Assembly: GCA_965224465.1 (NCBI GenBank)
Contig: OZ245049.1
Location: forward strand, 3,390,001 to 3,422,000
Source of the DNA: Flavobacteriaceae bacterium
Lineage (GTDB): Bacteria; Bacteroidota; Bacteroidia; Flavobacteriales; Flavobacteriaceae
Length of the DNA: 32,000 nt
Direction: 5' to 3'
The notes under the pieces are model-generated. The model saw only the letters and a program-made list of their open reading frames with translations, did no database searches and was not told the origin of the DNA. Position numbers and translations under genes: made by a program. Below are positions 13,569 to 32,000 of this stretch, piece by piece. Position 1 is the stretch's first letter, and each line of letters starts with the position of its first letter.

Positions 13569-13617
13569 TACCTTTGGTATAAGACAATTCCTTAAAAGAG
13601 GCAAACGTTTGTTTATC

Positions 13618-13663
13618 GTTGCTGTTCTTCTTGTTTTGACAAGAAGAACAGCAACTTTTTTTT
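13618..13663 (+). terminator. Rho-independent terminator after sprF.
   Basis: A perfect 16-bp stem (gttgctgttcttcttg / caagaagaacagcaac) with a 6-nt loop is followed by T8. Confidence 0.85.
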
Positions 13664-13708
13664 GTAATTAAAATTTGAAGGGAGTTAGGATGTATCCTCG
13701 TACACGTA

Positions 13709-13744
13709 ATACCAAATACAGTTCCAAGTGACTGTTTAGAAATG
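13709..13744. repeat. Copy 1 of a ~36-nt intergenic repeat (ataccaaatacaNttccaagtgNNNgtttagaaatg); copy 2 is at 22911-22946.
   Basis: By direct comparison the two sites differ at only about 4 positions. Both are intergenic. Confidence 0.6.
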
Positions 13745-13790
13745 GAATCATTTTGGATTGTAATTGGTATATGTCTCTTGTTACGAATCA

Positions 13791-15008: not shown

Positions 15009-15085
15009 ATTGCAAAGGTACAAATTGTGCTGATTTATAGGATTAATAAAAGAATTTTATACATTCGCTTTATAAGCTATTAATT

Positions 15086-16057
15086 ATGTCCGTATTATTC
15101 TCTAAGAAAAACAAGAAAAAGCCGCAAACCATTGCGTTTTACAACCTAGAAAACCTATTTGATACCATTGATGATAAAAACACATTTGATGATGATTTTA
15201 CGCCAGAGGGGAAAAAAAATTGGAATTATAAACGTTATCAAAAAAAAATCAAAAAATTAAGCAGTGTTATTTCTCAAATAGGAACTGATAAATCTAAATT
15301 ACCTCCTGTTTTAATTGGAGTGGTTGAGGTAGAAAACAAAGCTGTATTATCGGATTTGGTCAGTCATAAAAATTTAGCAGATTTCCATTATGGATATGCG
15401 CACTATGATTCGCCAGACGAACGAGGAATTGATGTAGCGCTGTTGTATCAAAAAAAACATTTTGAATTGTTAGCCTCTAAAACGTTCCCATTGTTGTTGA
15501 GTACCGATTCCGGGGGGCGTGATTATACAAGAGATGTTTTGTATGTAAAAGGACGATTAAAAGGGGAACTTATGTATATTTTGGTGAACCATTGGCCTTC
15601 AAGAAGAAGTGGTCTAGATACCTCTGAAGAAAAAAGGTTGTTGGCGGCAGAACTTGTGGGGTCTATTGTTGATGGAATTCAGTTAGAGGATCCTGAAGCT
15701 CATATTATAATTATGGGCGATTTTAATGATGATCCAACCAATATAAGTATCAAGCAAACATTGTTGTCTAATTCGAGTCTATACAATCCAATGGAAAGTT
15801 TGCTTGAAAAAGGAAAAGGGACCTTGTCTCATAAAAGAACCTGGCATTTGTTTGATCAGATTATTTTTACGAAAAACTTTTTTGAGAGGAGCAAAACGAC
15901 TTATTCTTTTCGTTATGCAGATGTTTTTAATAAAAAATTCCTAAAAACCTTCCGAGGAAAATATAAAGGAACTCCGTTTAGAACGTATGTTGGAAAATGG
16001 TATAAAGGTGGTTTTAGTGATCATTTTCCAGTCTATATTTATTTGAATAAAGGCTAG
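15086..16057 (+). CDS. Endonuclease/exonuclease/phosphatase (EEP) family protein.
   Basis: EEP catalytic motifs appear in order: IAFYNLENLFD, VVEVEN, NHWPSRR, GDFNDDP, SDHFPVY. I see no obvious signal peptide. Confidence 0.75.
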   Translation: MSVLFSKKNKKKPQTIAFYNLENLFDTIDDKNTFDDDFTPEGKKNWNYKRYQKKIKKLSSVISQIGTDKSKLPPVLIGVVEVENKAVLSDLVSHKNLADFHYGYAHYDSPDERGIDVALLYQKKHFELLASKTFPLLLSTDSGGRDYTRDVLYVKGRLKGELMYILVNHWPSRRSGLDTSEEKRLLAAELVGSIVDGIQLEDPEAHIIIMGDFNDDPTNISIKQTLLSNSSLYNPMESLLEKGKGTLSHKRTWHLFDQIIFTKNFFERSKTTYSFRYADVFNKKFLKTFRGKYKGTPFRTYVGKWYKGGFSDHFPVYIYLNKG

Positions 16058-16095
16058 TGATTGCTAACAAGAAACTATTTACTATAAATAGGTGA

Positions 16096-16130
16096 AAATC
16101 TCTCTGAAATTAATCAGGGAGATTTTTTTT
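16096..16130 (+). terminator. Rho-independent terminator after the EEP gene; it overlaps the last codons of the convergent CNNM gene.
   Basis: A 12-bp stem (aaatctctctga / tcagggagattt, with one G-U pair) has a 6-nt loop, and a T run follows through 16130. Confidence 0.7.
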
Positions 16131-17201
16131 GTCTTCTAGGATAATTCCTAGTTTTTTAGCGCGTTGGTTCCAGCCTTGTCTAGCAAGGTGTTGTAAGTCT
16201 GCATGGCTATCACTTTCGTCCATTATTTCTAGTCCTAAAAGTGTTTCTATAATGTCTTCTTGGCTAACAAGTCCACTGACAGAGCCATACTCGTCTACGA
16301 CAAGGGCTACATGTTCTCTCTTGTGAATCAAGGTGTCAAACAATGCGGGTATCGAGAGGTTTCTTTCTGTGACAAGGATGTCTCTTCTGATGGATTTTAG
16401 AGGTTGGTCTCCCTTTTTGTTGATAATAGCTTGGTATAAATTGTCTTTTAAAAAATAGCCTGTAATATTGTCGGAATTTTCTTTATATATTGGAATTCTA
16501 GAAAATTTTAATGCCAAGTTTTCATCAAAAAACTCTTGGATACTTTTTTCTTCGTTGGCTATTTTCATCACAGAGCGTGGCGTCATAATGCTCTTTACTT
16601 TTACTTCTTTAAAATTGATTAAATTTTTAATAATTCTGCTTTCCGATTCTAAAAATACGCCTTCTTCTGTTGCTATTTCAGCCATGGCACTAAAATCTTC
16701 TCTGCTCAATGCGCTTCCGTGCCCAGATTTCCCTATCAGTTTTGTTGTCAATTGAAGCAGCCATAACATTCCTGTCCATTTTAATATAAACACCATTCCT
16801 GTCAAAGTTTTGGCAGTAAAGCCAGCCAGTTGCTTCCAATAAGTAGCTCCAATGGTTTTAGGGATAATTTCGGATACCACCAAGATAAGCAACGTCATGA
16901 TTGCAGAGACAATCCCTACAATGTTTACGCCTAGGATATTGATGTCGTAATCCAAAGATTCTGCATGTACTCCCACTAATATGGCGCCCACAGTATGTGC
17001 CAACGTATTTAAAGTTAAGATGGCAATGATGGGTTTATCTATGTCGTTTTTTAAATGATCTAATGTTTTTGCATAGCCCAGTCCTTCTTTCTTTTTAATA
17101 TTGATAAAAGTGGGGTTGATACTCAGTAATACGGCTTCCAGTATGGAACATAAAAATGAAATAAAAATAGATGTGGCAGCTATGAGTAATAATGTAGTCA
17201 T
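16110..17201 (-). CDS. CNNM/DUF21 transmembrane domain plus CBS-pair protein (HlyC/CorC-type putative divalent-cation transporter, short form).
   Basis: The N-terminus has 4 hydrophobic helices with the SEIIPK motif. A CBS-pair region follows (IMTPR...; VVDEYGSVSGLVSQEDIIE). Confidence 0.8.
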   Translation of the reverse strand: MTTLLLIAATSIFISFLCSILEAVLLSINPTFINIKKKEGLGYAKTLDHLKNDIDKPIIAILTLNTLAHTVGAILVGVHAESLDYDINILGVNIVGIVSAIMTLLILVVSEIIPKTIGATYWKQLAGFTAKTLTGMVFILKWTGMLWLLQLTTKLIGKSGHGSALSREDFSAMAEIATEEGVFLESESRIIKNLINFKEVKVKSIMTPRSVMKIANEEKSIQEFFDENLALKFSRIPIYKENSDNITGYFLKDNLYQAIINKKGDQPLKSIRRDILVTERNLSIPALFDTLIHKREHVALVVDEYGSVSGLVSQEDIIETLLGLEIMDESDSHADLQHLARQGWNQRAKKLGIILEDKKNLPD

Positions 17202-17233
17202 AAAAATACGTGTATTTTGAACGTGAAAGATAC

Positions 17234-17267
17234 AAAAAAATCGCCTAGAAATAAGTTTCTAAGCGAT
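17234..17267 (-). terminator. Rho-independent terminator (minus strand) after the DUF3078-like gene.
   Basis: On the minus strand the stem atcgcttagaaa / tttctaggcgat (one mismatch) has a 4-nt loop and is followed by T7. Confidence 0.7.
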
Positions 17268-17293
17268 TCGGTAAAATTATTAAGTGCTTTTGT

Positions 17294-18181
17294 TTAGAAG
17301 GCGTAATTAACTCCAATTCCAAAAACCTCTCTAGTTTGAAATCCTTTATATGCATTGTCGTCATACACAGTCTGGAAGGTTAAATTTGCAGATAAATATT
17401 TGTTGATGGTCATCACCAAATTCATGGTGTAGTCCAAGTCTACATTTTTTGCTTCTTTTAAATAATTGGTGTATAAATTCAGGATGTTCTCCATCGATAC
17501 ATTATTCATCAGTTGTAATTTATAATAACCAGAGGCGTTTAATCCTATTTCATAACGGCTACTTTTTCCAGAGTCAACTCCAAAATAGCTATCATCTAGA
17601 ATCCCCATATTGTTTCTGAGTCCTTTGTCAATAAATGTAATTTTAGAAGTTAGAGGAGCGATATTAAATTTAAGATTATCGCTCTTTTTCCATAACATAC
17701 CTGGCCCAAAGGAGAGGTATCCTGGAGATAGTAGATTGGTAAATTCTTTTCTTTCTTCCTTTCCAAAAGCATTTTTTGAATATTTATATCCTTTAGAAAA
17801 CTGAGTTTTGAAATTCACAAAAGCAGAGTAATACCAATATCCAAATGCTTTTTTACCGTATAATGAATTGAATTCGAAACGGTCATCTGTTTTTTTCTCA
17901 AACTGACTATTTGCAGTTTTTGTCATGCCGTACGAGGCAATCAATTTATTATCCCATGTTACGTCTCCTTTTCTATAATTAAAGTCATAATTAATACCAA
18001 GAGTACCAGAAACATTATTTTCTCCTCCTGTTGTCCATTTTGAGAACGAAGATTGATTGAATAAAAAGGATAGATTCCCTCCTTTTGTCCAGCCTTCCTT
18101 TGGCTTTTCTGTTGTTTTATCTTGTGCAAATGAAATGGTGCACATGGCGGTAAGTGCTATTGAAAGCAATACTTTTTTCAT
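17294..18181 (-). CDS. Outer-membrane beta-barrel-like protein, DUF3078-like.
   Basis: It has a signal peptide (MKKVLLSIALTAMCTISFAQD), a WTKGGNLSFLFNQSSFSKWTTGGENN motif reminiscent of DUF3078, alternating aromatic beta-strand composition and a C-terminal F. The family call is from memory. Confidence 0.6.
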   Translation of the reverse strand: MKKVLLSIALTAMCTISFAQDKTTEKPKEGWTKGGNLSFLFNQSSFSKWTTGGENNVSGTLGINYDFNYRKGDVTWDNKLIASYGMTKTANSQFEKKTDDRFEFNSLYGKKAFGYWYYSAFVNFKTQFSKGYKYSKNAFGKEERKEFTNLLSPGYLSFGPGMLWKKSDNLKFNIAPLTSKITFIDKGLRNNMGILDDSYFGVDSGKSSRYEIGLNASGYYKLQLMNNVSMENILNLYTNYLKEAKNVDLDYTMNLVMTINKYLSANLTFQTVYDDNAYKGFQTREVFGIGVNYAF

Positions 18182-20823: not shown

Positions 20824-22722
20824 ATGAGTGATGCAATAAAACACGAATGTGGAATCGCAATGGTTCGTTTAAAAAAACCATTAGAATTTTATCAAAAAAA
20901 ATATGGAACTGCTTTTTATGGCTTAAATAAAATGTACTTGTTAATGGAAAAACAGCACAATCGTGGTCAAGATGGTGCGGGAATTGCAAGTATTAAATTT
21001 GATGTTGCTCCTGGTACACGGTATATTAGTAGAGTACGTTCCAACCAAGCGCAACCTATTCAGGATATCTTTGCTCAGATCAATACCCGTTTAGAAAAGG
21101 CATGGGAAGGCAATGAAGATAAGAAAGAGGATGTAGCATGGCAATTAAATAATCTGCCTTACTTAGGAAATTTGTTTCTAGGCCATGTTAGATATGGAAC
21201 TTTCGGTAATAATAGCATCGAAAGTGTACATCCATTTTTACGTCAAAGTAACTGGATGCATCGTAACTTATTGGTAGCGGGAAACTTTAATATGACCAAT
21301 TCAAATCGCATGTTTGACGATTTAGTAGAATTAGGGCAACATCCAAAAGAAATGACGGACACCGTGACGGTGATGGAAAAAATAGGTCATTTTATTGATG
21401 ATGAAGTATTGGATTTATACCATGAATTAAAGAAAGAAGGCTATAGTAAAAAAGATGCATCTCCAATTATAGGAGAACGTATGGATATAAAAAGCATCCT
21501 TCAAAAATCTTCAAAAAATTGGGATGGTGGTTATGCCATGGCAGGAGTACTTGGACATGGTGATGCTTTTGTGTTGAGAGATCCAGCAGGAATTAGACCT
21601 ACTTTTTATTTCGAGGATGATGAGGTGGTTGTCGTTGCTTCTGAACGCCCCGTAATACAAACAGTTTTCAACGTTGCTATTAATGATGTAAAAGAATTGG
21701 ATCGCGGTCATGCTTTAATTATCAAGCAAAACGGGAAGGTTACTGTAGATAAGATATTAGATCAATTGCCTAAAAAATCATGTTCTTTTGAACGTATCTA
21801 TTTCTCTCGTGGTAGCGATGCAGATATCCATACAGAACGTAAAAATTTAGGAAAATTAGTCTTTCCTCAAATCTTAGAAAAAATAGATGGAGATATGAAA
21901 AACACCGTTTTTTCATACATTCCTAATACCGCAGAAACTTCTTTTTATGGACTTAGAGAGGCAGCAGAAGATTATGTAAATACTCAAAAATTAGAGATTC
22001 TGTCTATAGAAAATAACAAACTGTCTGCAGAAGAATTGAAATCAATTTTGTTAGAGCGTCCACGTATCGAAAAATTGGCAATTAAAGATGCAAAATTGCG
22101 AACGTTTATTGCAGATGATAAAAGTCGTGACGATCTAGTTGCACATATTTATGATGTAACTTACGGAATTGTAAAACCCGACGATAATTTGGTGATTATT
22201 GATGATAGTATTGTTCGTGGGACTACGTTAAAGCAAAGTATCATTAAAATATTGGATCGTTTGTCTCCAAAGAAAATTGTAATTGTTTCTTCAGCTCCTC
22301 AAATTAGATATCCAGATTGTTATGGAATTGACATGGCTAGATTGGGTGATTTTATTGCTTTTAGAGCAGCCATCGAGCTATTAAAAGACCAAGGACAAGA
22401 GGCTGTTATAAAATCTGTATACGACAAATGTAAAGCGCAGCAAGGGAAACCAGATGTTGAAATTTCAAATTTTGTTAAAGAAATATATGTGTCATTTACC
22501 GATGCTCAAATTTCAGATAAAATAGCCGAAATGCTAAAAACTCATGAAATAAAAGCAGAAATTCAAATTATCTATCAATCTGTAGAAAATTTACATGTAG
22601 CCTGTCCAGATCATTTAGGTGATTGGTATTTTACGGGTGATTATCCTACTCCAGGAGGGATGCGAGTGGTAAACGATTCGTATATCAACTTCTTTGAAGG
22701 GAATAATAAAAGGGCTTATTAA
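20824..22722 (+). CDS. purF: Amidophosphoribosyltransferase (class-II glutamine amidotransferase plus PRTase domain), long Bacteroidota form.
   Basis: An N-terminal short propeptide precedes the catalytic Cys (MSDAIKHECGIAMV). The class-II GATase motifs NRGQDGAGI and GHVRYGT are present, as is a PRPP-binding loop (LVIIDDSIVRGTT). The start is set at ATG 20824 rather than TTG 20773. Confidence 0.85.
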   Translation: MSDAIKHECGIAMVRLKKPLEFYQKKYGTAFYGLNKMYLLMEKQHNRGQDGAGIASIKFDVAPGTRYISRVRSNQAQPIQDIFAQINTRLEKAWEGNEDKKEDVAWQLNNLPYLGNLFLGHVRYGTFGNNSIESVHPFLRQSNWMHRNLLVAGNFNMTNSNRMFDDLVELGQHPKEMTDTVTVMEKIGHFIDDEVLDLYHELKKEGYSKKDASPIIGERMDIKSILQKSSKNWDGGYAMAGVLGHGDAFVLRDPAGIRPTFYFEDDEVVVVASERPVIQTVFNVAINDVKELDRGHALIIKQNGKVTVDKILDQLPKKSCSFERIYFSRGSDADIHTERKNLGKLVFPQILEKIDGDMKNTVFSYIPNTAETSFYGLREAAEDYVNTQKLEILSIENNKLSAEELKSILLERPRIEKLAIKDAKLRTFIADDKSRDDLVAHIYDVTYGIVKPDDNLVIIDDSIVRGTTLKQSIIKILDRLSPKKIVIVSSAPQIRYPDCYGIDMARLGDFIAFRAAIELLKDQGQEAVIKSVYDKCKAQQGKPDVEISNFVKEIYVSFTDAQISDKIAEMLKTHEIKAEIQIIYQSVENLHVACPDHLGDWYFTGDYPTPGGMRVVNDSYINFFEGNNKRAY

Positions 22723-22751
22723 TAGAAATTAAGATTTTTCTATATTTAAAT

Positions 22752-22782
22752 AAACCTCTTGCTTCGGTAAGAGGTTTTTTTT
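22752..22782 (+). terminator. Rho-independent terminator after purF; it marks the end of the core block.
   Basis: The stem aaacctcttgc / gtaagaggttt has a ttcg loop and is followed by a T run. Confidence 0.85.
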
Positions 22783-22910
22783 GTCTAGGGAATACAAAGA
22801 TTGCGATCCGTTTTGTCTCGACAAAAATGGTGTATTTGCGATTTATATCGCTTAGTTGAATTCAGCCAGTATGGAAGTTTGTTTCTTTTTAAAGAGTGAA
22901 AACTTGAGTT

Positions 22911-22946
22911 ATACCAAATACATTTCCAAGTGGCGGTTTAGAAATG
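22911..22946. repeat. Copy 2 of the ~36-nt intergenic repeat seen at 13709-13744.
   Basis: ataccaaatacatttccaagtggcggtttagaaatg compared with ataccaaatacagttccaagtgactgtttagaaatg. Confidence 0.6.
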
Positions 22947-23055
22947 TAGGCTTCATACCAAAAAACGCAAAATTTCCGTTAGGATATTTAAATGAAATTA
23001 TATTGTAAGTTCTATAATCCTTTTAAGATTATAATTGGACACCTTGTTATTATAG

Positions 23056-24059
23056 AACTCTTTTTGAAGACATCCATTCCTCTAAAACAGTTACTTTCAG
23101 CTTTAATTTCAGTAAGTTTTTGTTAGGCAGCTGATTCTAGGTATAGCCCGTAAATACATGTTTTATGTACTCCTAACCGTTTCATAATAAGCGCACCGTA
23201 TCCATAGCAATTATTATTTATTTTGTTAGGTCAAAAAAAGACTGCCTAGTAAGAGCCTTGCTTCATTCATGCTTTTAAAATCAGTAGAATAGTAATCAAT
23301 CCTTTATAATAACTATGTAAACAAAGGTCAATAACCTCTGGGCAAGCCCACGAGGCATGATAAAGAAAAAAACCTTAATCATTTCGATGCAAGCATCGGG
23401 GAATTAAACCCACTAGTGGGATTAAAATACAGAAACACACGTGCGTATAACATTATTTTATATATTTGCCTTACGTTTTAAAAATAAATACGCCTTAATA
23501 TTAAGCCCACCCTGCATTGTGAACTAAATGGATATGCCATCATGTTTACAATTGCTATTGTGAGGATATGTGTATTACAAAGCATTGACACACGCAAACA
23601 CACAACATAGAATAACAAAACAACATGGTAAAAGCAATATTAATAATAGATGGAAAAGAAGTAAACGTACGTTGGTTTACCATCAATTTTAATCAAGGAG
23701 CAAACCCTAACGGGAGACCCTCACAGAAACCCATATTTATAGGTTTTAAACTAATTATAGAAACTAGAAAAGACCTAAATCTTACTGACTGGGCATTTTC
23801 CTCTAGACAAACAAAACAGATAGTATTACATCTTAATTCCGTTATTTTGGGAGGGAAAACAAGAAAAATATTTTTCTATGACTGTCATCTTGTAAACTGG
23901 AAAACCAATTTTTCTTCTACAGGCTCAGATCCAATGACGGAAACTTTAGAAATCACCTGTGCTGGTGTTGAAGATTCTAATTCGTCTGGTGTGTATTCTG
24001 CCTCTTGGAGGGTTACGTATCCAGAACTAGAAGTCGAACCAACAATTAGAGATGATAAT
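23056..24059 (+). repeat. Conserved 5' block, copy 1: ~570-bp upstream region plus Hcp-like codons 1-145. It is homologous to 28187-29120.
   Basis: Manual alignment of the coding part finds about 20 mismatches and no indels in 435 nt. The upstream part is clearly homologous but has indels, and copy 1 is about 70 bp longer. Homology stops abruptly after ...gatgataat (24059 / 29120). Confidence 0.85.
23461..23468 (+). promoter_or_regulatory. Candidate -7 promoter element (TATATTTG, consensus TAnnTTTG) for cassette 1.
   Basis: The motif lies about 157 nt upstream of the Hcp-like ATG. It is conserved at the equivalent position of cassette 2 (28516-28523). Confidence 0.4.
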
Positions 24060-24314
24060 ATAGAAAAAACTATTATAGAATCTTTTTTTGAAGATAAAAA
24101 AACGATGCAAAAGATTGATTTTTTAAAACCTAATATGAATGTTAATTTAGTCTTGAAGCTAAAAAACATGGAAAACACATCTATTGACATAGATTTATCA
24201 GAATATAAAGTAGGTTTTGAGCATAATGGCAATAAATTAGACGATGATATTTTAAAAGAGATAGATATTTCAAGTGATACTAAAAAAATAAATTTAAAAA
24301 CTACTAAAAAATAA
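23625..24314 (+). CDS. tssD: TssD/Hcp-like tube protein (Bacteroidota T6SSiii type) with an ~84-aa C-terminal extension, copy 1.
   Basis: The first ~140 aa follow the pattern I remember for Bacteroidota TssD. It runs: short N-terminus, L.IDGKE..V..f...F.Q....nGRPS, then ....E...D..L..W, then F.D...V.....F...G..PM...L.I. Canonical TssD is about 130-150 aa, whereas this protein is 229 aa. There is no signal peptide. Confidence 0.6.
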   Translation: MVKAILIIDGKEVNVRWFTINFNQGANPNGRPSQKPIFIGFKLIIETRKDLNLTDWAFSSRQTKQIVLHLNSVILGGKTRKIFFYDCHLVNWKTNFSSTGSDPMTETLEITCAGVEDSNSSGVYSASWRVTYPELEVEPTIRDDNIEKTIIESFFEDKKTMQKIDFLKPNMNVNLVLKLKNMENTSIDIDLSEYKVGFEHNGNKLDDDILKEIDISSDTKKINLKTTKK

Positions 24315-24319
24315 TAATT

Positions 24320-25549
24320 ATGGCTATTATAACAGAAGTAGGAAACCCAAGTAACTCTTATTCTTTTAAACCATTAGAAGTATGGGAATTTACTCCAATT
24401 GTACTTTTAAATAAAGAACCTACGGATTACGATAGAATAGAAGACATAATACTTCTTTACAATGTAGATGAAAAGGTTGAATTATCTGATAAACTAAGTA
24501 CTTCTATAAGTAGTAAATATACACTTATGGAGTTTACAACAGAATTAGATACACTAACATTAAGTTTTATTGTAAAGAATGGAACTACTGACCAATTTTA
24601 CGACGAAGACGGATATATTAAGCCTCAATTAACGTTAATTGATAATAATAATAATAATAAAGACACTAAAAATACGATTGAAATCACTAAAAATGAAAGT
24701 TTTTTAATAGATTACGATAAAAAAGAAACAACAGAAATTGAAGTCGATATTTCTATAAAATCAAAAAATGATATATCTTTTTATGTAGATTTTTATGCTA
24801 ATGATGATAAAAAGTATTTTGATGTTGAGGGAGCTTATAAAAATGTATTTTGTGGTAGAGTAAAAATAATTTACAATACTGATAATGAATGGCAGTTTTC
24901 TTTAAATGAAATTGAAAAGATTAAAACTTATGCTATTACTAATAATGTAGATTATAGAAATTCTTTTAAGAAAGATCGTAAAGATAGAAAATACACTGAT
25001 TACCACCATTGTACCGATACTCATAAAAATATTGTGTACCAACTATTAAATAATCCTACCGATTTATATCTTGGAGAAAATCAAACAAAAAACAGAAAGA
25101 CTCCCAGAGATTATGAAAAAGCAGGGGAATCAACAACTCATGGAGTTAGGAATAGACTAATAGCATCAACTTATGCTGAATCTTCAAAAAACTTTACTGT
25201 TATTGATATTAATAATAACGAAGTTTTAAATAGTGGACAAGCAGGGAATACAGATGTGAAATTAAGTAAGTTTAAAGAAAGCCCTGTTGTATATATGAAA
25301 AATAAATGCCCTAAAGATGGCTATTATATATTTATTGGAGCATATAATGATGATTATCATTCTTTTACTATTGTAGCTAATAAGCGTGGGGAGAATATTA
25401 ATTTCATCTTTATAGACCAAGTAGTTGGAATAAGTAGTTTCACTGAAAGTAATTTTGAAAAATCTAAGTTATTAAGGAACATTGATAGTTATTCTTTTGA
25501 CTACCCTATGAAATTAGAATTATTTCAATTAAGAAATAAAAAGAAATAA
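24320..25549 (+). CDS. Hypothetical protein; candidate T6SS cargo toxin (effector 1).
   Basis: A 409-aa ORF starts 5 nt after the Hcp-like stop. It has no signal peptide or T9SS CTD and is Asn/Lys-rich. I recognise no catalytic motif. A lipoprotein gene follows after 2 nt, which is typical effector-immunity coupling. Confidence 0.75.
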   Translation: MAIITEVGNPSNSYSFKPLEVWEFTPIVLLNKEPTDYDRIEDIILLYNVDEKVELSDKLSTSISSKYTLMEFTTELDTLTLSFIVKNGTTDQFYDEDGYIKPQLTLIDNNNNNKDTKNTIEITKNESFLIDYDKKETTEIEVDISIKSKNDISFYVDFYANDDKKYFDVEGAYKNVFCGRVKIIYNTDNEWQFSLNEIEKIKTYAITNNVDYRNSFKKDRKDRKYTDYHHCTDTHKNIVYQLLNNPTDLYLGENQTKNRKTPRDYEKAGESTTHGVRNRLIASTYAESSKNFTVIDINNNEVLNSGQAGNTDVKLSKFKESPVVYMKNKCPKDGYYIFIGAYNDDYHSFTIVANKRGENINFIFIDQVVGISSFTESNFEKSKLLRNIDSYSFDYPMKLELFQLRNKKK

Positions 25550-25551
25550 AA

Positions 25552-26175
25552 ATGAAAAAATATTTTTTAATATTACTCGTCCTATTATTTATATTTAATT
25601 GTAATGGTTCTAAACAAGATAGTAAAGTAAACCTTGATAAGGTTAATTCTAAAATCACTTTAAATAAAGTGATTTTAGATACGTTAAAAGTTAAAAAGAA
25701 ACTATTAACAATAAATAATTTTAACCTTTTATTGTCTAAAATAAAAAACGTAAAAAATGTAGGAGAAAAGCATAAAGACTGGATGTCTAATAAAGCAAGG
25801 ACTTTAGATTCACTTTTTCTACTTGATAATCGAGAATTTTCTGTAAAAACAATAAGTTATGAGTACAAAAAAAATGTAATATTTTATGTTCATGATTTAA
25901 AACATATAAACGATACTATAAGTATAAAGCCTTTTTTAGAAAATGCACAAGGAAAAACTAGTGAAGGTTACTTAGGGGAACGTGTATTAATTTTTGCAAT
26001 GAAAAACAATAAAGATGCAAATTTTATTGATATACCTGTAAATTGGAACTATGGCGAGTTAGAGGATGAGCTTCTTGAAATATTATATAAAAATATAGAT
26101 AGTGATGTAATAATTTGTAGAAATATAGACACCTGTATATATATTAGGGATTTACGAAAAATGAAGTCTGAATAA
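25552..26175 (+). CDS. Lipoprotein; candidate cognate immunity protein for effector 1.
   Basis: 207 aa with an SPII-type signal and lipobox (MKKYFLILLVLLFIFN-C). It is translationally coupled to the upstream ORF through a 2-nt gap. Confidence 0.75.
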   Translation: MKKYFLILLVLLFIFNCNGSKQDSKVNLDKVNSKITLNKVILDTLKVKKKLLTINNFNLLLSKIKNVKNVGEKHKDWMSNKARTLDSLFLLDNREFSVKTISYEYKKNVIFYVHDLKHINDTISIKPFLENAQGKTSEGYLGERVLIFAMKNNKDANFIDIPVNWNYGELEDELLEILYKNIDSDVIICRNIDTCIYIRDLRKMKSE

Positions 26176-26303
26176 AAAATATAGGTCAGTTACCAAATAC
26201 CTAGCTAAAATTACGTGGGTCGGTGGGGTCCCAATAATTTTATTGTTGCACTGAAAAAAAATGTAATATTTTATGTTTTAAAACATCTTAAATTTTATAC
26301 AAA

Positions 26304-26930
26304 ATGAAAAAAATCATAACATTATTAGTAGGTTTTTGGGTTGCTATATCTTTTTCTCAAGAAAAAAAAATCCCATACCCAAAAATTATTAAACCGATTA
26401 TTTCTTATAACTATAAAGTAAGCATATTAAATGGACTTGAGTTTTGTACATATAACGATGGGGATTATTTAAGAGGTCATTATAATGTTGAAGTTTACAT
26501 TTTAGATAAGACCATTTCAGATACTACGATTATTGATAATGGACTAGAAAGAAGCACTTTACGGTATGATTTAGCATATAGTAGATACAAAGGAACTAAT
26601 ATATCTTTACAAGGCAAGTTTTTTAAAGGCTACAAAAACGGTTTCTGGAAAACTACATATAAAAACAAATTAGTAAAAACCATAAATTATAATCATGGTT
26701 TAGTTATTGGTAGATACAGAGTTTACAATTTAAAAGGAAATATACTATATAAAACTACATTTGGTACTAAAGGTAATGGTAGGTTTGAAGATTATTATTA
26801 CAAAACTGGTCTTTTAAAACAAGAAGGCAATTACAAAAACGGAAAAAAACAAGGAGAATGGCGCGATTATGATGAACAGGGAAATACTAAAAAAATAACT
26901 TATTACGAAAATGGAACTCCAGTAAAATAA
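26304..26930 (+). CDS. YwqK-family/MORN-variant repeat protein with a signal peptide (immunity-type protein), copy 1.
   Basis: It has a signal peptide (MKKIITLLVGFWVAISFSQ). The C-terminal half carries MORN_2-like repeats (G.f..yY.tGlLkqEGnYkNGkkqGeW.dYdeqGn..k.tyYenG), as in proteins annotated as YwqK-family antitoxins. Confidence 0.7.
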   Translation: MKKIITLLVGFWVAISFSQEKKIPYPKIIKPIISYNYKVSILNGLEFCTYNDGDYLRGHYNVEVYILDKTISDTTIIDNGLERSTLRYDLAYSRYKGTNISLQGKFFKGYKNGFWKTTYKNKLVKTINYNHGLVIGRYRVYNLKGNILYKTTFGTKGNGRFEDYYYKTGLLKQEGNYKNGKKQGEWRDYDEQGNTKKITYYENGTPVK

Positions 26931-27064
26931 GGTCCTACAATTAATAACCAAGGGTTTATACGATACTTAGGTTTCAATGTGAACGCCTTAGTAATTAAAG
27001 GTTTAAGTTTGCGAAAAAAATAATTCTCCTAATAACTTTTTTAATCTATTGTGTTACGCTTAAA
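26592..27064 (+). repeat. Conserved 3' block, copy 1: the C-terminal ~112 codons of the YwqK-like gene plus ~130 bp downstream. It is homologous to 31009-31481.
   Basis: The offset is constant at 4417 nt and I saw no indels. There are 4 aa differences across the shared protein part. Homology ends at the left end of the IS30 element. Confidence 0.85.
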
Positions 27065-28179
27065 TTCAACTAATAAACGCAACTTTTCGATTTGATTCTA
27101 TGATGGTTATATTTTCAAAACAGAAAAGTAGGAAAACCTACCTTTCTTGTCTTGATGGATATGTATCTTACGGTCTCAAATCTCGAAAAAAGAAGTTGTA
27201 TGAAACACATCACCCAAGCGCAAAGATACACAATTTGTTGCATGTTAAAACAAGGTTATAAACAGGTTGAGATAGCAGCTGCTATAGGAAAAGACAAGTC
27301 TGTTATTAGCAAAGAGATTAAGCGTAATTCAGACAAAAGAAATGGAGTTTACAAGCATGAATTAGCCCAAAAAAAGTATGCTAAACGTCATAAAGAAAAG
27401 CCTAAAAGAAAACGCTTTACAGAAGATATTCAACAAGCAATAGAGTTGTTATTGCGAGACGATTATAGTCCTGAGCAAGTAGTTGGTGTCCTAAAAAAAC
27501 AAGGTAAAGAAACGGTGTCTATTGAGCGTATATATCAGCATATTAGGGAAGACAAGAGGAATGATGGTGATTTACATACACACCTTCGCAGACAGGGAAG
27601 GAGATATAGAAAACGTGGCTCATCAAAGGATTCTAGAGGGGTTATAAAGAATCGTATTAGTATAGAACAACGCCCTGAAGTTGTTGAACAAAGAAATCGA
27701 TTTGGAGATTTAGAGGTCGATTTAATCATAGGTAAAAACCATAATCAAGCCATACTTACCGTAAATGATAGAGCTTCTGGAATGCTTAAAATGAAAAAAG
27801 TAAGCTCTAAAGAAGCAGTTGTTGTCACTAAAGCTATCAATGAAATATTAGAAGACTGGAAGCCTTATCTACATACTATAACAGCTGATAATGGAAAAGA
27901 ATTTGCAGGCCATGAGCAGGTTGCAGAAAATTTATGTATTGATTACTTTTTTGCGCATCCATATCACTCTTGGGAAAGAGGATCTAACGAAAATTTAAAT
28001 GGTTTGATTAGACAATATTTTGCCAAAGGAAGTGACTTTACAAACCTAACAGATCAAAGAATCAAAGAGGTAGAAACAAAATTAAATAACAGACCTAGGA
28101 AGAGACATAAATATCAAAACCCTATATTTGTAATGGAACAATTATTATTTAACTAAAAGTTGCGTTTGTGACTTGAATT
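27063..28179 (+). mobile_element. IS30-family insertion sequence (~1.1 kb) with imperfect ~25-bp terminal inverted repeats.
   Basis: IR-L at 27063-27087 is aattcaactaataaacgcaactttt. IR-R at 28155-28179 has the reverse complement aattcaagtcacaaacgcaactttt, giving 22/25 matches. A single transposase ORF lies between them. I see no matching target-site duplication. Confidence 0.8.
27200..28156 (+). CDS. IS30-family DDE transposase.
   Basis: The N-terminal HTH (MKHITQAQRYTICCMLKQGY...) is typical of IS30 transposases. The DDE region includes DLEVDLIIG, ITADNGKEF and SWERGSNENLNGLIRQYF. The ATG at 27200 is preferred over the upstream TTG/ATG at 27152-27157. Confidence 0.9.
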   Translation: MKHITQAQRYTICCMLKQGYKQVEIAAAIGKDKSVISKEIKRNSDKRNGVYKHELAQKKYAKRHKEKPKRKRFTEDIQQAIELLLRDDYSPEQVVGVLKKQGKETVSIERIYQHIREDKRNDGDLHTHLRRQGRRYRKRGSSKDSRGVIKNRISIEQRPEVVEQRNRFGDLEVDLIIGKNHNQAILTVNDRASGMLKMKKVSSKEAVVVTKAINEILEDWKPYLHTITADNGKEFAGHEQVAENLCIDYFFAHPYHSWERGSNENLNGLIRQYFAKGSDFTNLTDQRIKEVETKLNNRPRKRHKYQNPIFVMEQLLFN

Positions 28180-28186
28180 CAGCTAA

Positions 28187-29120
28187 AACTCTTTTTGATG
28201 ACATCCATTACTCTAGAATATTCAGTTTTATCTTTAATTTCAGTAAGTTTTTGTTGTTTTGGCATGAAGCTCATTCTAGGTAGCCCCAAAAATACATCTA
28301 TTAAGTACTCATAACCGTTGTGTCATAAGCGCGCTATATCCATAGCAATTATTGTTTATTTTATTAGGTTAGAAAAGGACTACCTAGTTTATAGCCTTGT
28401 TCAATTCTTTCTTTTGAAAAACAGAAGAACAGGAATCTACCCTTTAGGACAAGCATATAAACAAAATTAATCAGAATAAAAACACAATAACACGTGTGCG
28501 TATAACATTTTTATATATATTTGACCTACGCTTAAAAACGGACACACTCTATCAACAAGCCCCCACCTACATTGTAAACTAAATGGATATGCCTTCTAGT
28601 TTAGAGTTGCTATTGTGAGAATATTACTATTACAAAGCATTGACAGACTCAAACAACTTAATACAACATAGAATAAAAGAACAATATGGTAAAAGCAACA
28701 TTAATAATAGATGGAAAAGAAGTAAACGTACGTTGGTTTACCATCAATTTTAATCAAGGAGCAAATCCTAACGGCAGACCCTCACAAATCCCCGTATTTA
28801 TAGGCTTTAAGCTAATTATAGAAGCTAGAAAAGACCTAAACCTAACTGACTGGGCCTTTTCCTCCAGACAAACAAAAGAGATAGTATTACATCTTAATTC
28901 CGTTATTTTGGGAGGCAAAACAAGAAAAATATTTTTCTATGACTGTCATCTTGTAAACTGGAAAACCAATTTTTCTTCTACAGGCTCAGATCCAATGACG
29001 GAAACTTTAGAAATTACTTGTGCTGGTGTTGAAGATTCTAATTCGTCTGGTGTGTATTCTGCATCTTGGAGAGTTACGTATCCAGAACTAGAAGTCGAAC
29101 CAACAATTAGAGATGATAAT
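28187..29120 (+). repeat. Conserved 5' block, copy 2 (homologous to 23056-24059).
   Basis: See copy 1. This copy begins within a few nt of the IS30 right end. Confidence 0.85.
28516..28523 (+). promoter_or_regulatory. Candidate -7 promoter element (TATATTTG) for cassette 2.
   Basis: It is the positional homologue of 23461-23468 and lies about 163 nt upstream of the ATG. Confidence 0.4.
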
Positions 29121-29375
29121 GAACCGAATTTTCTAGGATACTTTTTTGAAAATAAAAACGGAGAACCTATAGAACAAGAAAAAATAGAACCCAACCAAAA
29201 AGTAACTTTAGTTATAAAAACTGAAAATTCTGATATTGAAGTAATAACCATAAATTTGAATGACGATAGATTAAATTTTAAACACAATAATAAGGTGTTA
29301 GAAAACGACACTTTAGTAGGCGTAAGAATAACAGGAGAAGAAACAAGAATTGATTTAATTAGTATAATGGAATAA
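28686..29375 (+). CDS. tssD: TssD/Hcp-like tube protein with an ~84-aa C-terminal extension, copy 2.
   Basis: Residues 1-145 differ from copy 1 at only 5 positions. Residues 146-229 are alignable with copy 1 but highly diverged. Both proteins are 229 aa. Confidence 0.6.
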   Translation: MVKATLIIDGKEVNVRWFTINFNQGANPNGRPSQIPVFIGFKLIIEARKDLNLTDWAFSSRQTKEIVLHLNSVILGGKTRKIFFYDCHLVNWKTNFSSTGSDPMTETLEITCAGVEDSNSSGVYSASWRVTYPELEVEPTIRDDNEPNFLGYFFENKNGEPIEQEKIEPNQKVTLVIKTENSDIEVITINLNDDRLNFKHNNKVLENDTLVGVRITGEETRIDLISIME

Positions 29376-29376
29376 T

Positions 29377-30717
29377 ATGGCTGGTAAAACAAATAGAGGA
29401 ATAGCCCGTTTTGAGTCTGGAAGAGGAAATACCATGGAAATAATTTTTCCAACAGTAGTAAGTGATTTAAAATTTAACGTTCAATTTAGAAGACTAGACA
29501 GTTATAAAGGCGAGTTCGGTTTCGATTGGATGCGAGATAATTATAAAATAATATCTAAAGATTATGATAAATTAAAAAAGGAATACACACCGACTAAAAT
29601 TCATGAAGAAGATTATTTTGTGCCTTGGTTAAGTATGTTTCCTAACCAAGAGGGGGTAAAATTAAAGTTAGTGATTACAGAAATAGAAGGTACTGTAAAA
29701 GATAACGACATTATAAAACTCTCATCTAAAGACGGCATACATTTTGAACCTAACGAGCTAAAAGTATCTGAAGCCAATGGTAAAGAAATAACTATAATTT
29801 GTGAATCGCTTTTAAGCAATGATATTACCATTTCATTACTAGATAAAAACGATGAAGAGGTTGGTAAACTAAATATTTTTAAAAATGCAAATCACGAGCA
29901 ACTACATTTTAACATTACTCCTGTTCGAATTTTGAGAGGAGTATCACAACAAAGTGATAAAGATGTTATTGAGAATATGATAGATCACTCTCAAGGTTTT
30001 GGAGATAAAAGCAAAGATATAAATGGTGACTTACAAAACCTACAAGACTATTTAAATACTCAATCTTTAAATCAAGCTTTATTACAATGTAGTATTGGTA
30101 AGGTTTATGATGTTATTATAGATGAAGATAAATGGATAACTAATGACTTAATTATAGATGAAGGGTGTATATTTAAAGATGTAGAAATTTTAGAGAAATT
30201 GGATAAGGAATTTAAAAAACAACACCCTAAACAAGCTAAAAAAAGAGGTTTAGTTTTATTCTTATCTCCTTTAAGAAAAGAAGGTGCTGGAGGAGAAGGA
30301 GAAATTAGTGAGATAGATGCAAAAAGGTTAGTGATTTATCAATCAAATTTATGGGATAAAGAAAGTTTTGCCCACGAAATCTCACACGTTTTAGGATTGA
30401 CACATTCATTTCAGAAAAAGATGTCTACAGAGGATGTTTTTATTATGAATAGATTTATTAAGAAAGTAGACGATGATCTTAATTATATGATTAAAAATAA
30501 TGACCCTCAAAATCAAATTGCAGATGAATGGAGTACACGTAAAGATAGATATAAAGAATATAGAGTGTATTTAAACACCTATTATAAAAACCCTTATCTT
30601 TTTGAAAAAACAAAAACTGAAAATATCATGGATTATGAAAATATCAGAAAATCTTTTTGGAAATACCAATGGGAATCAATGCAAGATGATATAGTTAAGT
30701 TTTATAATGTTAAATAA
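29377..30717 (+). CDS. Zinc metallopeptidase-like protein (metzincin-type HExxHxxGxxH); candidate T6SS cargo toxin (effector 2).
   Basis: A 446-aa ORF starts 1 nt after the Hcp-like stop and has no signal peptide. The motif FAHEISHVLGLTHSF (H-E-x-x-H-x-x-G-x-x-H) lies at nt 30373-30405. A possible Met-turn, ENIMDY, has its Met at 30628-30630, reminiscent of M43/reprolysin-like metzincins. Confidence 0.7.
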   Translation: MAGKTNRGIARFESGRGNTMEIIFPTVVSDLKFNVQFRRLDSYKGEFGFDWMRDNYKIISKDYDKLKKEYTPTKIHEEDYFVPWLSMFPNQEGVKLKLVITEIEGTVKDNDIIKLSSKDGIHFEPNELKVSEANGKEITIICESLLSNDITISLLDKNDEEVGKLNIFKNANHEQLHFNITPVRILRGVSQQSDKDVIENMIDHSQGFGDKSKDINGDLQNLQDYLNTQSLNQALLQCSIGKVYDVIIDEDKWITNDLIIDEGCIFKDVEILEKLDKEFKKQHPKQAKKRGLVLFLSPLRKEGAGGEGEISEIDAKRLVIYQSNLWDKESFAHEISHVLGLTHSFQKKMSTEDVFIMNRFIKKVDDDLNYMIKNNDPQNQIADEWSTRKDRYKEYRVYLNTYYKNPYLFEKTKTENIMDYENIRKSFWKYQWESMQDDIVKFYNVK

Positions 30718-30720
30718 GCA

Positions 30721-31347
30721 ATGAAAAAAACAATAACCTTAATACTATTAGCACTTTATATTAATTCCTTTGGTCAAAAACTAATGGTAAAACCGCCTAT
30801 TCCTATTACTCCAATAAGTTCTTTAGAATTAAAAACAAGTATTAAATTAGGTAAAGAGTTATCTTTTTTAATTAAAGAAAAGAAAACAATTAGAAATGGA
30901 GAGTATATAGTAATGGTTAGGAAAAAAAAAGAAAAAAAATCCATCCCTTATAAGTATATAAAGAATAATGAGGGAAATGACACTCCAAATTATGGACTTA
31001 AAGGAATAGGAACTAATATATATTTACAAGGCAAGTTTTTTAAAGGCTATAAAAATGGTTTCTGGAAAACTACATATAAAAACAAATTAGTAAAAACCAT
31101 AAATTATAATCATGGTTTAGTTATTGGTAGATACAGAGTTTACAATTTAAAAGGAAATATACTATATAAAACTACATTTGGTACTAAAGGTAATGGTAGG
31201 TTTGAAGATTATTATTACAAAACTGGTCTTTTAAAACAAGAAGGTAATTTCAGAAACGGAAAAAAACAAGGAGAATGGTGCGATTATGATGAACAGGGAA
31301 ATACTAAAAAAATAACTTATTACGAAAATGGAACTCCAGTAAAATAA
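30721..31347 (+). CDS. YwqK-family/MORN-variant repeat protein with a signal peptide, copy 2; candidate immunity protein for effector 2.
   Basis: It starts 3 nt after the effector 2 stop and has a signal peptide (MKKTITLILLALYINSFGQ). The N-terminal ~96 aa are unrelated in detail to copy 1. The C-terminal ~112 aa are nearly identical to copy 1. Confidence 0.7.
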   Translation: MKKTITLILLALYINSFGQKLMVKPPIPITPISSLELKTSIKLGKELSFLIKEKKTIRNGEYIVMVRKKKEKKSIPYKYIKNNEGNDTPNYGLKGIGTNIYLQGKFFKGYKNGFWKTTYKNKLVKTINYNHGLVIGRYRVYNLKGNILYKTTFGTKGNGRFEDYYYKTGLLKQEGNFRNGKKQGEWCDYDEQGNTKKITYYENGTPVK

Positions 31348-31481
31348 GGTCCTGCAGCTAATAACCAATGGTATATACGACGCTTAGGTTTAAATGTGAA
31401 CGCCTTAGTAATTAAAGGTTTAAGTTTATGGAGAAAATAACTCTCCTAATAACTTTTTTAATCTATTGTGTTATGATTAAA
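31009..31481 (+). repeat. Conserved 3' block, copy 2 (homologous to 26592-27064).
   Basis: See copy 1. Confidence 0.85.
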
Positions 31482-31800
31482 GCGCAGAGTACTGATACAA
31501 TAAAATCAGAAGACAATATAGTAAGCGCTAAACGTTATCAACTCTATGTTGTTTAAAAGGGCTCTTTAAAAAGGGAAATAGCTGTTTTTTGGAATAGTAA
31601 AAAAGAAGATTACAGTTATGTAAGCAGTGGATTAATTATATGTTATAGAAATCTTCATAAGTTTAAACAAAGAGGAATGGAAAATTTCATGGATTACACA
31701 AGTGGTAAGAAAAGGACTTGAAGCAACAAGAAAAGTAATCAACAGATGGAATAACAGCAAAGATTATCAATGGGAATTATTACCTATTTCGGTTGTGTAA
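31428..31800 (+). pseudogene. Possible degraded gene for a small signal-peptide protein.
   Basis: ATG 31428 opens MEKITLLITFLIYCVMIKAQS... (signal-peptide-like) and hits an in-frame TAA at 31554. The same frame stays open for about 54 more codons to a TGA at 31719. A +1 frame then continues from about 31714 to a TAA at 31800. The cassette 1 counterpart lacks the ATG and is cut by IS30. Confidence 0.35.
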
Positions 31801-31831
31801 TTTAAACTCTGTCTGCTTGTTTTTTTCTACG

Positions 31832-31891
31832 TTTTAAAATAGTTCGATTTTCTCTTCATAAGGCTGCTTTAAAAATCGAACTATTTTAAAA
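31832..31891. repeat. Perfect 20-bp inverted repeat with a 20-nt spacer.
   Basis: ttttaaaatagttcgatttt (31832-31851) and its exact reverse complement aaaatcgaactattttaaaa (31872-31891). Confidence 0.8.
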
Positions 31892-32000
31892 TGAGCCCCA
31901 GCGGCTAGCGTCACGAACTGCTTCCGTTTTTATGTAAATCCAACGTTATTCGATCTTCAAATTTAATATATAATTGTTGAATTGTCAAGCACCAATTATG

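Follow-up and report, generated by a model that had tools for sequence, protein, structure and literature searches.

Two tandem Hcp cassettes with conserved arms and divergent payloads in a Flavobacteriaceae bacterium

Gene content and identity profile of the two cassettes

We analyzed a 32-kb stretch of DNA from a Flavobacteriaceae bacterium (contig OZ245049.1, positions 3,390,001 to 3,422,000), referred to here as the window, whose positions are used for coordinates unless another locus is named. Open reading frame (ORF) listing and repeat finding revealed two similar gene sets that occupy units at 23053-27062 and 28184-31478 and that we call cassettes 1 and 2. Cassette 1 consists of a non-coding leader (23053-23624), the gene of the tube protein Hcp1 (23625-24314, 229 amino acids [aa]), ORF409 (24320-25549), ORF207 (25552-26175) and a gene for a YwqK-like protein, YwqK1 (26304-26930, 208 aa). 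Cassette 2 consists of a leader (28184-28685), Hcp2 (28686-29375, 229 aa), ORF446 (29377-30717) and YwqK2 (30721-31347, 208 aa). All of these features lie on the forward strand, as does the IS30-family insertion sequence (IS) found between the two units (27063-28181).

Both Hcp proteins matched PF17642 (TssD, the Hcp of Bacteroidota) over residues 2-128, with scores of 85.4 and 84.8 bits against a cutoff of 25.8. We refer to ORF409 as effector 1 (Tox1, 409 aa), to ORF446 as effector 2 (Tox2, 446 aa), to ORF207 as Imm1, the putative cognate immunity protein of Tox1 (207 aa), and to YwqK2 as the putative cognate immunity protein of Tox2. A sequence-only reading of the same DNA had already used the labels Hcp, toxin, immunity and YwqK-like. 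The assignment of Hcp was borne out, by the family score of 85 bits and by the predicted fold described below, whereas “YwqK-like” is taken from the annotation of relatives and “toxin” and “immunity” are labels drawn from genetic context.

Database searches gave few further matches. Tox1 had no family or structure match in Pfam, NCBIfam or a PDB sequence search, Imm1 matched no family in Pfam or NCBIfam, and the PDB sequence search returned nothing meaningful for Tox2 or YwqK1. The C-terminal domain of Tox2 contains HEISHVLGLTHSF...NIMDY, a metzincin-like motif, and its Pfam matches were below the gathering thresholds (M43, 17.2 vs 23 bits, E = 0.005; Reprolysin_5, 20.3 vs 27 bits). The two YwqK-like proteins had no Pfam match at E < 0.1 and only a sub-threshold NCBIfam match, to LIC20035; among homologues sharing 42-54% identity with them the annotation is YwqK family antitoxin or MORN repeat protein, with PF07661 present in four. 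Signal or lipoprotein-like sequences are present at the N termini of both YwqK-like proteins and of ORF207 (lipoprotein-like in ORF207). Judging from these N termini, immunity would be periplasmic and the toxins would act in the periplasm.

Parts of the two cassettes are nearly identical, and this identity stops and returns abruptly. In an ungapped profile at an offset of 5061 nucleotides (nt), 23600-24059 matched 28661-29120 without indels and at 83-100% identity. Within this interval lie the two copies of what we call the left arm (23625-24059 and 28686-29120). These are Hcp codons 1-145, encoding the Hcp/TssD tube domain and most of a linker, and 415 of their 435 nucleotides agree (95.4%). 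Immediately after GATGATAAT (24059/29120), identity fell to 30-55% within about 10 nt. At an offset of 4417 it climbed from less than 40% to more than 93% at approximately 26590 (26591/31008) and remained high to about 27060. This second interval defines the right arm (26592-27062 and 31009-31479), which is composed of the C-terminal half of the YwqK-like gene (to 26930 and 31347; 332/339 nt or 98% identity) and a 132-nt trailer at 90% identity, in which 112 of 125 positions after the stop codon are identical and homology extends about 132 nt past the stop, to 27062/31479.

A maximum chi-square test placed the change points at 24059 (chi2 = 176.5) and 26590 (chi2 = 207.2). None of 5000 permutations reached the observed values, the highest permuted chi2 being approximately 21. 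The breakpoints and offsets proposed in the sequence-only reading were therefore correct to within 1-2 bases, as was its description of a step-like rather than gradual change and of an abrupt return of identity in the middle of the YwqK-like gene that continues about 130 bp past its stop. It had also extended the ~95% identity at offset 5061 to the leader. This holds for the Hcp codons; in contrast, the leader upstream of about 23600 is 80-86% identical with indels, and only its last ~25 nt keep the offset.

The boundaries of the divergent core, 24060-26591 in cassette 1 and 29121-31008 in cassette 2, were likewise as proposed, but the core is not uniformly unrelated. The variable C-terminal extensions of the Hcp proteins (24060-24314 and 29121-29375, 84 aa in Hcp1) aligned end to end at about 32% aa identity, and the variable N-terminal halves of the YwqK/MORN-like proteins (26304-26591 and 30721-31008) at about 31%. 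These are diverged homologues, in other words old alleles of the same domains. Tox1 and Tox2 showed no homology, and ORF207 has no counterpart in cassette 2, so that only the toxins and the 207-aa ORF lack an equivalent in the other cassette.

Synonymous and nonsynonymous divergence (dS and dN, estimated by the Nei-Gojobori method) changed along with identity. Between the cassettes, dS was 0.17 in the Hcp core (dN 0.016) and 0.048 in the YwqK C-terminal half (dN 0.015), as compared to about 1.9 (saturated) in the Hcp extension (dN 0.54) and about 1.0 in the YwqK N-terminal half (dN 0.90). Since synonymous sites step in the same way and the non-coding leader and trailer are conserved too, the arms and the core differ in age, and protein selection alone cannot explain the pattern. 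The pair of cassettes is a genuine recombination mosaic.

Related loci and the two-domain Hcp

The source genome (5.24 Mb) encodes at least nine extended-Hcp paralogues, whose cores are nearly invariant and which diverge from about residue 129-146 on. An alignment-based scan of GTDB species representatives identified 45 loci in marine Flavobacteriaceae, a single genome carrying 10 copies at most. Related loci are numbered L001, L002 and so on, and L046, L047 and L048 denote contigs of a close relative in the metagenome assembly ERZ25073217. In approximately 78% of 756 Hcp-anchored locus pairs, DNA homology ended at nt 360-450 of the Hcp gene. Near-identical pairs within one genome stopped alike (L027/L029, 98.6% to +471; L033/L034, 97.8% to +392; L026/L038, 90.9% to +406).

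Three metagenomic loci join the arms of the window to other payloads. L047 is 96.9% identical to window positions 23421-24059. Beyond 24059, exactly where this match stops, it carries another extension and another payload. In L048, 23578-24043 are matched at 93%; the extension and the 473-aa effector that come next have 70-86% aa identity to their counterparts in L019 and L013, two loci from other genera. L046 carries a Tox2-family toxin (52% aa identity to Tox2, with HExxH...NFMDY) overlapping a YwqK1-type gene, followed by the trailer and then by the downstream flank of cassette 2, at 97% through 31790. Contigs of this assembly contain apparent frameshifts that make their gene calls unreliable while leaving the DNA identities unaffected. 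Arms and payload thus do not co-vary as one unit. The proposal that the arms could serve as homology handles for payload exchange is supported by these other payloads and by the discordant dS values; it does not extend to the right arm in general, which L047 and L048 lack.

Three architectures were found among the related loci. In the split form, to which the window belongs, an Hcp of approximately 230 aa is followed 1-10 nt downstream by an effector gene. In the fused form, a single ORF of 530-650 aa comprises Hcp core, beta domain and toxin (L014, L016, L023, L027-L030 and L034). In the bare form, an Hcp of 135-155 aa is accompanied by an effector. Two of the fused proteins, L014 and L023, contain a Tox2-type HExxHxxGxxH...NIMDY domain. 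Split and fused forms of one weapon therefore coexist in this Hcp family.

An AlphaFold (AF2) model of Hcp built from 33 homologues (mean predicted local distance difference test score, pLDDT, of 83) consisted of a beta-barrel core at residues 1-131, a low-confidence linker at about 131-148 (pLDDT 55-68) and a confident all-beta domain at 149-227 (pLDDT >90). The best Foldseek matches of the core were 8gra, 6bdc (F. johnsoniae Hcp1) and 7yw0 (B. fragilis Hcp5), with target template modeling (TM) scores of 0.80-0.82; when the whole model was used as the query, the core alone was aligned. The extension matched no family in Pfam or NCBIfam. According to the model, the left breakpoint at codon 145 falls in the linker between the Hcp core and the beta domain.

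In both cassettes the effector has its own ATG, located after the Hcp stop and in a frame other than that of Hcp. The distance from the stop is 5 nt in cassette 1 (24312-24322, TAATAATTATG) and 1 nt in cassette 2 (29373-29379, TAATATG), and such short gaps suggest translational coupling of Hcp with the effector. A programmed readthrough or frameshift joining the two proteins, considered in view of the fused relatives, was rejected, as the frames are not the same in the two cassettes and both effectors possess a start codon. Hcp and effector are probably separate, translationally coupled genes.

The extension co-varies with the beginning of the effector rather than with the Hcp core. In all 12 locus pairs with similar effector N termini (normalized score >0.3), the extensions were similar as well (≥0.68), while core and extension similarity were uncorrelated in the 25 split-type loci (rho = -0.07). 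In the pairs L006/L026 and L002/L017, extension (0.86-0.92) and effector N terminus (0.92-0.93) are conserved, and no similarity is left in the last 150 residues of the effectors. The extensions of L001 (Bizionia) and L041 (Mesonia) have 52-54% aa identity to extension 2. The L001 effector resembles Tox2 in residues 6-35 only, and L041 shows the same pattern (first ~35 residues). As extension and effector N terminus are conserved while the tip differs, the cassettes display a nested modularity: Hcp core, then extension plus effector N terminus, then toxin tip plus immunity.

In Bacteroides, minor Hcps bind the effector encoded downstream, are needed for its secretion and co-segregate with effector type (PMC13213661), and by analogy the nested modularity fits those experiments. 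It is quite possible, although short of probable, that the 84-aa beta domain is a dedicated and swappable cargo adaptor for the N-terminal ~30-120 residues of the downstream effector. If so, marine Flavobacteriaceae with a type VI secretion system of subtype iii (T6SS-iii) would use a two-level plug-and-play code of universal tube domain, adaptor with effector loading region, and toxin tip with immunity. A single crossover at the linker of Hcp would suffice to re-arm the machine, one within the effector would exchange the toxin only, and fused Hcp-toxins and split Hcp/effector pairs would be interconvertible states of one system.

The right boundary recurs in a similar manner. Proteins of the YwqK-like family have a hypervariable N-terminal half (16-34% identity) and a conserved C-terminal half (65-81% between genomes), and identity between two tandem YwqK genes in L044 rises from 33% in the N-half to 81% in the C-half, their tails being near-identical. 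Both breakpoints of the window are therefore recurrent boundaries between conserved and variable domains across the family; they mark where homology ends and are not necessarily the crossover points.

Tox2-family toxins are always followed by YwqK-like genes (cassette 2, L023, L044 and L046), and cassette 1 has no such toxin. From this arrangement, YwqK1 would be an orphan immunity gene that stands after an incoming Tox1+Imm1 module. Over its whole length YwqK1 is 92% identical (94% in nt) to the L046 gene, which does follow a Tox2-family toxin.

Tox1 itself is rare, with 41 matches among 1.84 billion representatives. It is also modular: in many proteins the similarity is confined to the N-terminal ~200 residues, and in others, including fragments of 61-124 aa, to the C-terminal part. 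Elsewhere, a headless copy of its C-terminal domain (about aa 299-409) stands beside an Imm1 homologue: in Tamlana L013 (12785-13757), stop codons precede a Tox1-type tip of ~110 aa, directly after which comes an intact homologue of Imm1 with 210 aa and 45% identity, and the pair lies downstream of a different, complete Hcp-effector-immunity cassette. Cassette debris is also present in the window at 31566-31791, on the forward strand. A headless, stop-interrupted Tox2-family tip (31566-31712, ...YRNLHKFKQRGMENFMDY), closest to the L046/L044 type, is followed by a fragment of another cassette gene (31693-31791). The orphan YwqK1, the headless tips and the window relic correspond to the footprints of displacement known from V. 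cholerae (PMC5361080).

A larger collection of such fragments was seen in L048 (6252-9980), where a repeating unit of ~1.67 kb (genes of 109, 109, 124 and 80 aa, twice) ends at a DDE transposase. In it, homologues of immunity genes alternate with headless C-terminal pieces of effectors, and it represents an orphan toxin-tip/immunity array.

Proposed payload exchange and its alternatives

We consider it likely that these are two T6SS-iii Hcp-effector-immunity cassettes and that homologous recombination in conserved arms has brought about the exchange of their payloads. Each cassette would comprise a promoter-bearing leader, a two-domain Hcp (tube-forming core, flexible linker and 84-aa beta domain), an effector and one or more periplasmic immunity genes. 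The conserved leader and Hcp core would have to fit a shared secretion machine. Together with the C-terminal MORN-like half of the YwqK-like gene and its trailer, they would offer homology for RecA-type recombination with paralogous cassettes or incoming DNA. Recombination spanning the heterologous middle would then replace the Hcp adaptor domain, the matched effector and the immunity specificity region en bloc, and the sharp breakpoints would be the ends of homology, at two interdomain boundaries. In cassette 1, a Tox1+Imm1 module would have displaced a Tox2-family toxin and left its YwqK1 immunity gene behind as an orphan.

Exchange of T6SS effector-immunity modules in V. cholerae was reportedly described by Unterweger et al. 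in 2014. In this species, homologous recombination at any site with enough homology lets an incoming module take the place of the effector, and old immunity genes stay behind (PMC5361080). There, too, conserved upstream structural or adaptor genes and conserved downstream sequence flank a heterologous effector-immunity core (Kirchberger et al. 2017, PMC5361080), and orphan immunity genes downstream of the new pair and mosaic clusters have their likeness here in the orphan YwqK1, the toxin-tip debris and the same arms on other payloads. The features by which displacement is recognized in V. cholerae are present in our loci: abrupt conserved flanks, discordant histories, other payloads in relatives and, if YwqK1 has the activity suggested by its context, an orphan immunity gene. 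The two systems differ in several respects. Ours belongs to another phylum and to T6SS-iii, its upstream handle is the Hcp core instead of hcp-vgrG-tap, its left boundary lies inside the linker of the Hcp gene and its right boundary inside the immunity gene, which yields chimeric immunity proteins. In addition, the window cassettes are located outside any T6SS cluster, beside housekeeping genes.

The minor Hcps of the Bacteroidales GA3 and GA2 systems, which are cognate to effectors in variable cassettes (PMC13213661, PMC4714493), are the second close parallel. They share with the window the T6SS-iii subtype, PF17642 and the fold, which in our search matched B. fragilis Hcp5 and Hcp2-Hcp3. In both cases the effector is encoded directly downstream of a specialized Hcp. 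The type of effector goes together with the Hcp variant in Bacteroidales and with the extension in our loci. However, the Bacteroidales proteins are single-domain Hcps of ~15-16 kDa whose whole sequence tracks the effector and which form heterohexamers (San-Miguel et al. 2026, PMC13213661; Coyne et al. 2016, PMC4714493). In the window, on the other hand, a separate C-terminal domain of 84 aa appears to carry the specificity, while the core hardly varies and shows no correlation with the payload.

“Evolved” Hcps with C-terminal toxin domains, called Hcp-ET, were reportedly found in Enterobacteriaceae by Ma et al. in 2017; PMC6730261 also mentions them. Like these, our loci place variable toxin modules and immunity genes after an Hcp core, and the relatives L014 and L023 are fully fused. 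In the window, by contrast, the toxin is a separate gene in another frame, and Hcp keeps only the beta domain, which separates core from toxin in the fused forms. An Hcp-ET fusion was therefore rejected for the window cassettes, where the Hcp stop precedes a separate effector ATG.

The layout had been compared in the sequence-only reading to Rhs/CdiA orphan arrays. This analogy has merit, as polymorphic C-terminal toxins with immunity genes, recombination in conserved sequence upstream of a variable tip, and headless tip/immunity modules downstream of a full-length gene are common to both (L013, L048 and the relic at 31566-31712). Nevertheless, V. cholerae displacement and the Bacteroidales minor Hcps are the closer analogues: our delivery scaffold is Hcp, and the window pair is two complete cassettes rather than a full gene with orphans. 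Scans of the cassette proteins with Pfam and NCBIfam detected no Rhs/YD repeats, no CdiA/FHA domains and no conserved pre-toxin motif, and a Rhs or CdiA identity was rejected in the absence of these scaffold domains. A diversity-generating retroelement as the source of the hypervariable halves was rejected as well, since neither a reverse transcriptase nor a template repeat turned up among the window's ORFs and repeats.

Several observations weigh against payload exchange as we describe it. Toxin and immunity functions are contextual, and Tox1 is without a family or structural match. Domain annotation of the proteins of the 32-kb window detected no T6SS core gene (TssB/C, ClpV and others), so that T6SS dependence in the source genome is an assumption. 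The gene calls of ERZ25073217 are affected by the frameshifts, even though its DNA identities hold, and the absence of the right arm from L047 and L048 means that this arm is not a general handle. On the left side the two window copies are not recent exchange partners: the Hcp core of cassette 1 is 97.7% identical to that of L047 and 95.4% to that of cassette 2, and as it is nearer to L047, the copies diverged before the genomes split. The right arm is slightly younger than the left (synonymous changes, 3/65 vs 15/96, p = 0.04, Fisher; trailer vs leader, p = 0.03), and more than one event is therefore needed. Finally, the recombination event, its donor and its direction are inferred rather than directly observed.

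This difference in arm age also speaks for the strongest alternative, concerted evolution. According to this explanation, anciently distinct tandem cassettes were repeatedly homogenized by gene conversion in their conserved segments only, with conversion stopping where similarity was low. Such a process would account for the unequal arms (dS 0.17 vs 0.048), for the tandem YwqK genes of L044 with their divergent N-halves and near-identical tail, and for the great similarity of all paralogous Hcp cores in the source genome. The right arm of L046 also matches cassettes 1 and 2 in alternating runs (8 vs 12 expected, p = 0.04), and gene conversion between YwqK paralogues probably contributes. The affinity of the cassette 1 left arm for L047 rather than for its neighbor is, however, the opposite of what homogenization within a genome would produce, and an orphan immunity gene and headless pieces of toxins are traces that replacement, rather than conversion, leaves behind. 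We consider concerted evolution possible but rather unlikely as the main explanation. As it also requires homologous recombination at the same boundaries, it differs from payload replacement only in what moved, and probably both occur.

Movement by a mobile element, either IS30 transposition (including a composite transposon) or integron-like site-specific recombination, would be an alternative to general homologous recombination. The IS30 element lies exactly at the junction of the units. Its transposase (ORF 27152-28156) scored 290.7 bits with NF033563 against a cutoff of 80, and its terminal inverted repeats (27063-27087 and 28155-28179) are 25 nt long and 88% complementary, with no obvious target-site duplication around 27063-28181. 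The right arm of cassette 1 ends at 27062, just before the left inverted repeat, and homology to the cassette 2 leader begins at 28184, about 3 nt past the right one; the units are thus directly tandem with the IS at their junction. The element may have given rise to the tandem arrangement or may have inserted later into an intergenic site. A 72%-identical IS30 relative is present 3.6 kb downstream of the L047 cassette, which is also near RadC and ParA-like genes, and the L048 array ends in a DDE transposase, as noted above. Against this, the two breakpoints lie within genes, at distances of 3 kb and 0.5 kb from the IS, and have no repeat or att-like motif in common. The window contains no integrase and no second IS copy flanking a cassette, and most of the 45 related loci have the same left boundary without a consistent transposase. 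A mobile element is consequently an improbable cause. IS-mediated movement was rejected for the internal breakpoints, and an integron-like or other site-specific cassette system was rejected, with no integrase in the window and no motif shared by the two breakpoints.

The least tenable alternative, an old tandem duplication without recombination in which purifying selection on the Hcp core and MORN-like half was combined with diversifying selection between them, could draw on the breakpoints being protein domain boundaries family-wide, even between genera, and on the equal length of the diverged extensions and YwqK N-halves, but it is effectively refuted by the dS contrast (0.05-0.17 vs saturated) and conflicts with the conserved non-coding leader and trailer, the unrelated toxins and extra gene of cassette 1, and the occurrence of the same arm on other payloads in a relative.

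Payload exchange thus remains the explanation that we prefer. Effector-immunity module swapping with orphan immunity genes is an established principle, and the value of these data is incremental and not conceptual. The new element, of modest novelty, is the two-domain Hcp whose linker is a recurrent exchange boundary and whose C-terminal domain tracks the effector N terminus; a limited search of the searchable literature found no description of such a protein. Base-level breakpoints combined with comparison to relatives show how arsenals diversify in a poorly studied group, the marine Flavobacteriaceae with T6SS-iii. The near-invariant Hcp tube domain and leader would be a portable 5' homology handle in at least nine cassettes per genome, and the moving unit would include an Hcp-borne domain matched to the effector.

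These data also suggest a rule for finding unknown effectors and immunity genes of Bacteroidota, which is to take what follows the linker of an extended Hcp. They provide a testable hypothesis on cargo recognition by Hcp, and the naturally chimeric immunity proteins could be used to map the half that determines specificity.

Leaders, flanks and neighboring genes

The ~200 nt before the Hcp start are non-coding and share long blocks among four cassettes of two genomes (23421-23624 and 28476-28685 in the window, 5119-5323 in L047 and 3163-3477 in L048). Leader 1 contains no ORF of more than 48 codons in any frame, and a scan of 22700-32000 gave no Rfam match to the leaders. The motif TATATATTTG (23459-23468 and 28514-28523) fits the Bacteroidota -7 promoter motif TAnnTTTG. 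Its position ~155 nt before the ATG would imply a long conserved 5' untranslated region.

Leader 1 differs from leader 2 and from the leaders of L047 and L048 by an insertion of ~93 nt (about 23328-23420), which ends in a perfect 12-nt palindrome (CCCACTAGTGGG, 23409-23420). Genome YR2-618 contains a ~240-nt intergenic element whose copies are 94-95% identical and lie between gene units of the cassette region (relative to the Hcp start, at -1917, +2530 and +4439 in L002 and at -552 to -305 in L019). This element may be a counterpart of the window leader and mark cassette boundaries.

A T6SS locus with similar cassettes was found in Ulvibacter L031, where two tandem extended-Hcp cassettes (4612-12290 and 12980-17331) are located directly upstream of ClpV, TssB and TssC (PF17541, E = 5e-242). 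They encode an Hcp of 231 aa with proteins of 462 and 204 aa, and an Hcp of 230 aa with a protein of 530 aa.

In the window, the neighboring genes are purF-like, pfkB, suf genes, hflX and a cargo/PorP pair of a type IX secretion system (T9SS). HflX is 83-85% identical to that of Lutibacter, and the host genome is related to this genus. Downstream of the cassette debris is a long, nearly perfect hairpin (31827-31896) that may be a terminator or a repeat element; the only Rfam match of the scan, a sub-threshold one to mir-553 on both strands of this hairpin, was dismissed as spurious. The T9SS cargo pair, ~10 kb upstream of the cassettes, consists of a giant ORF of 4198 aa (20-12616) followed by a PorP/SprF gene (12633-13568). 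In L046 (2729-11260), a 2542-aa FG-GAP/CHU_C protein and a PorP are encoded directly downstream of the YwqK1-type gene. T6SS cassettes and T9SS adhesin pairs therefore adjoin in both genomes, in different arrangements.

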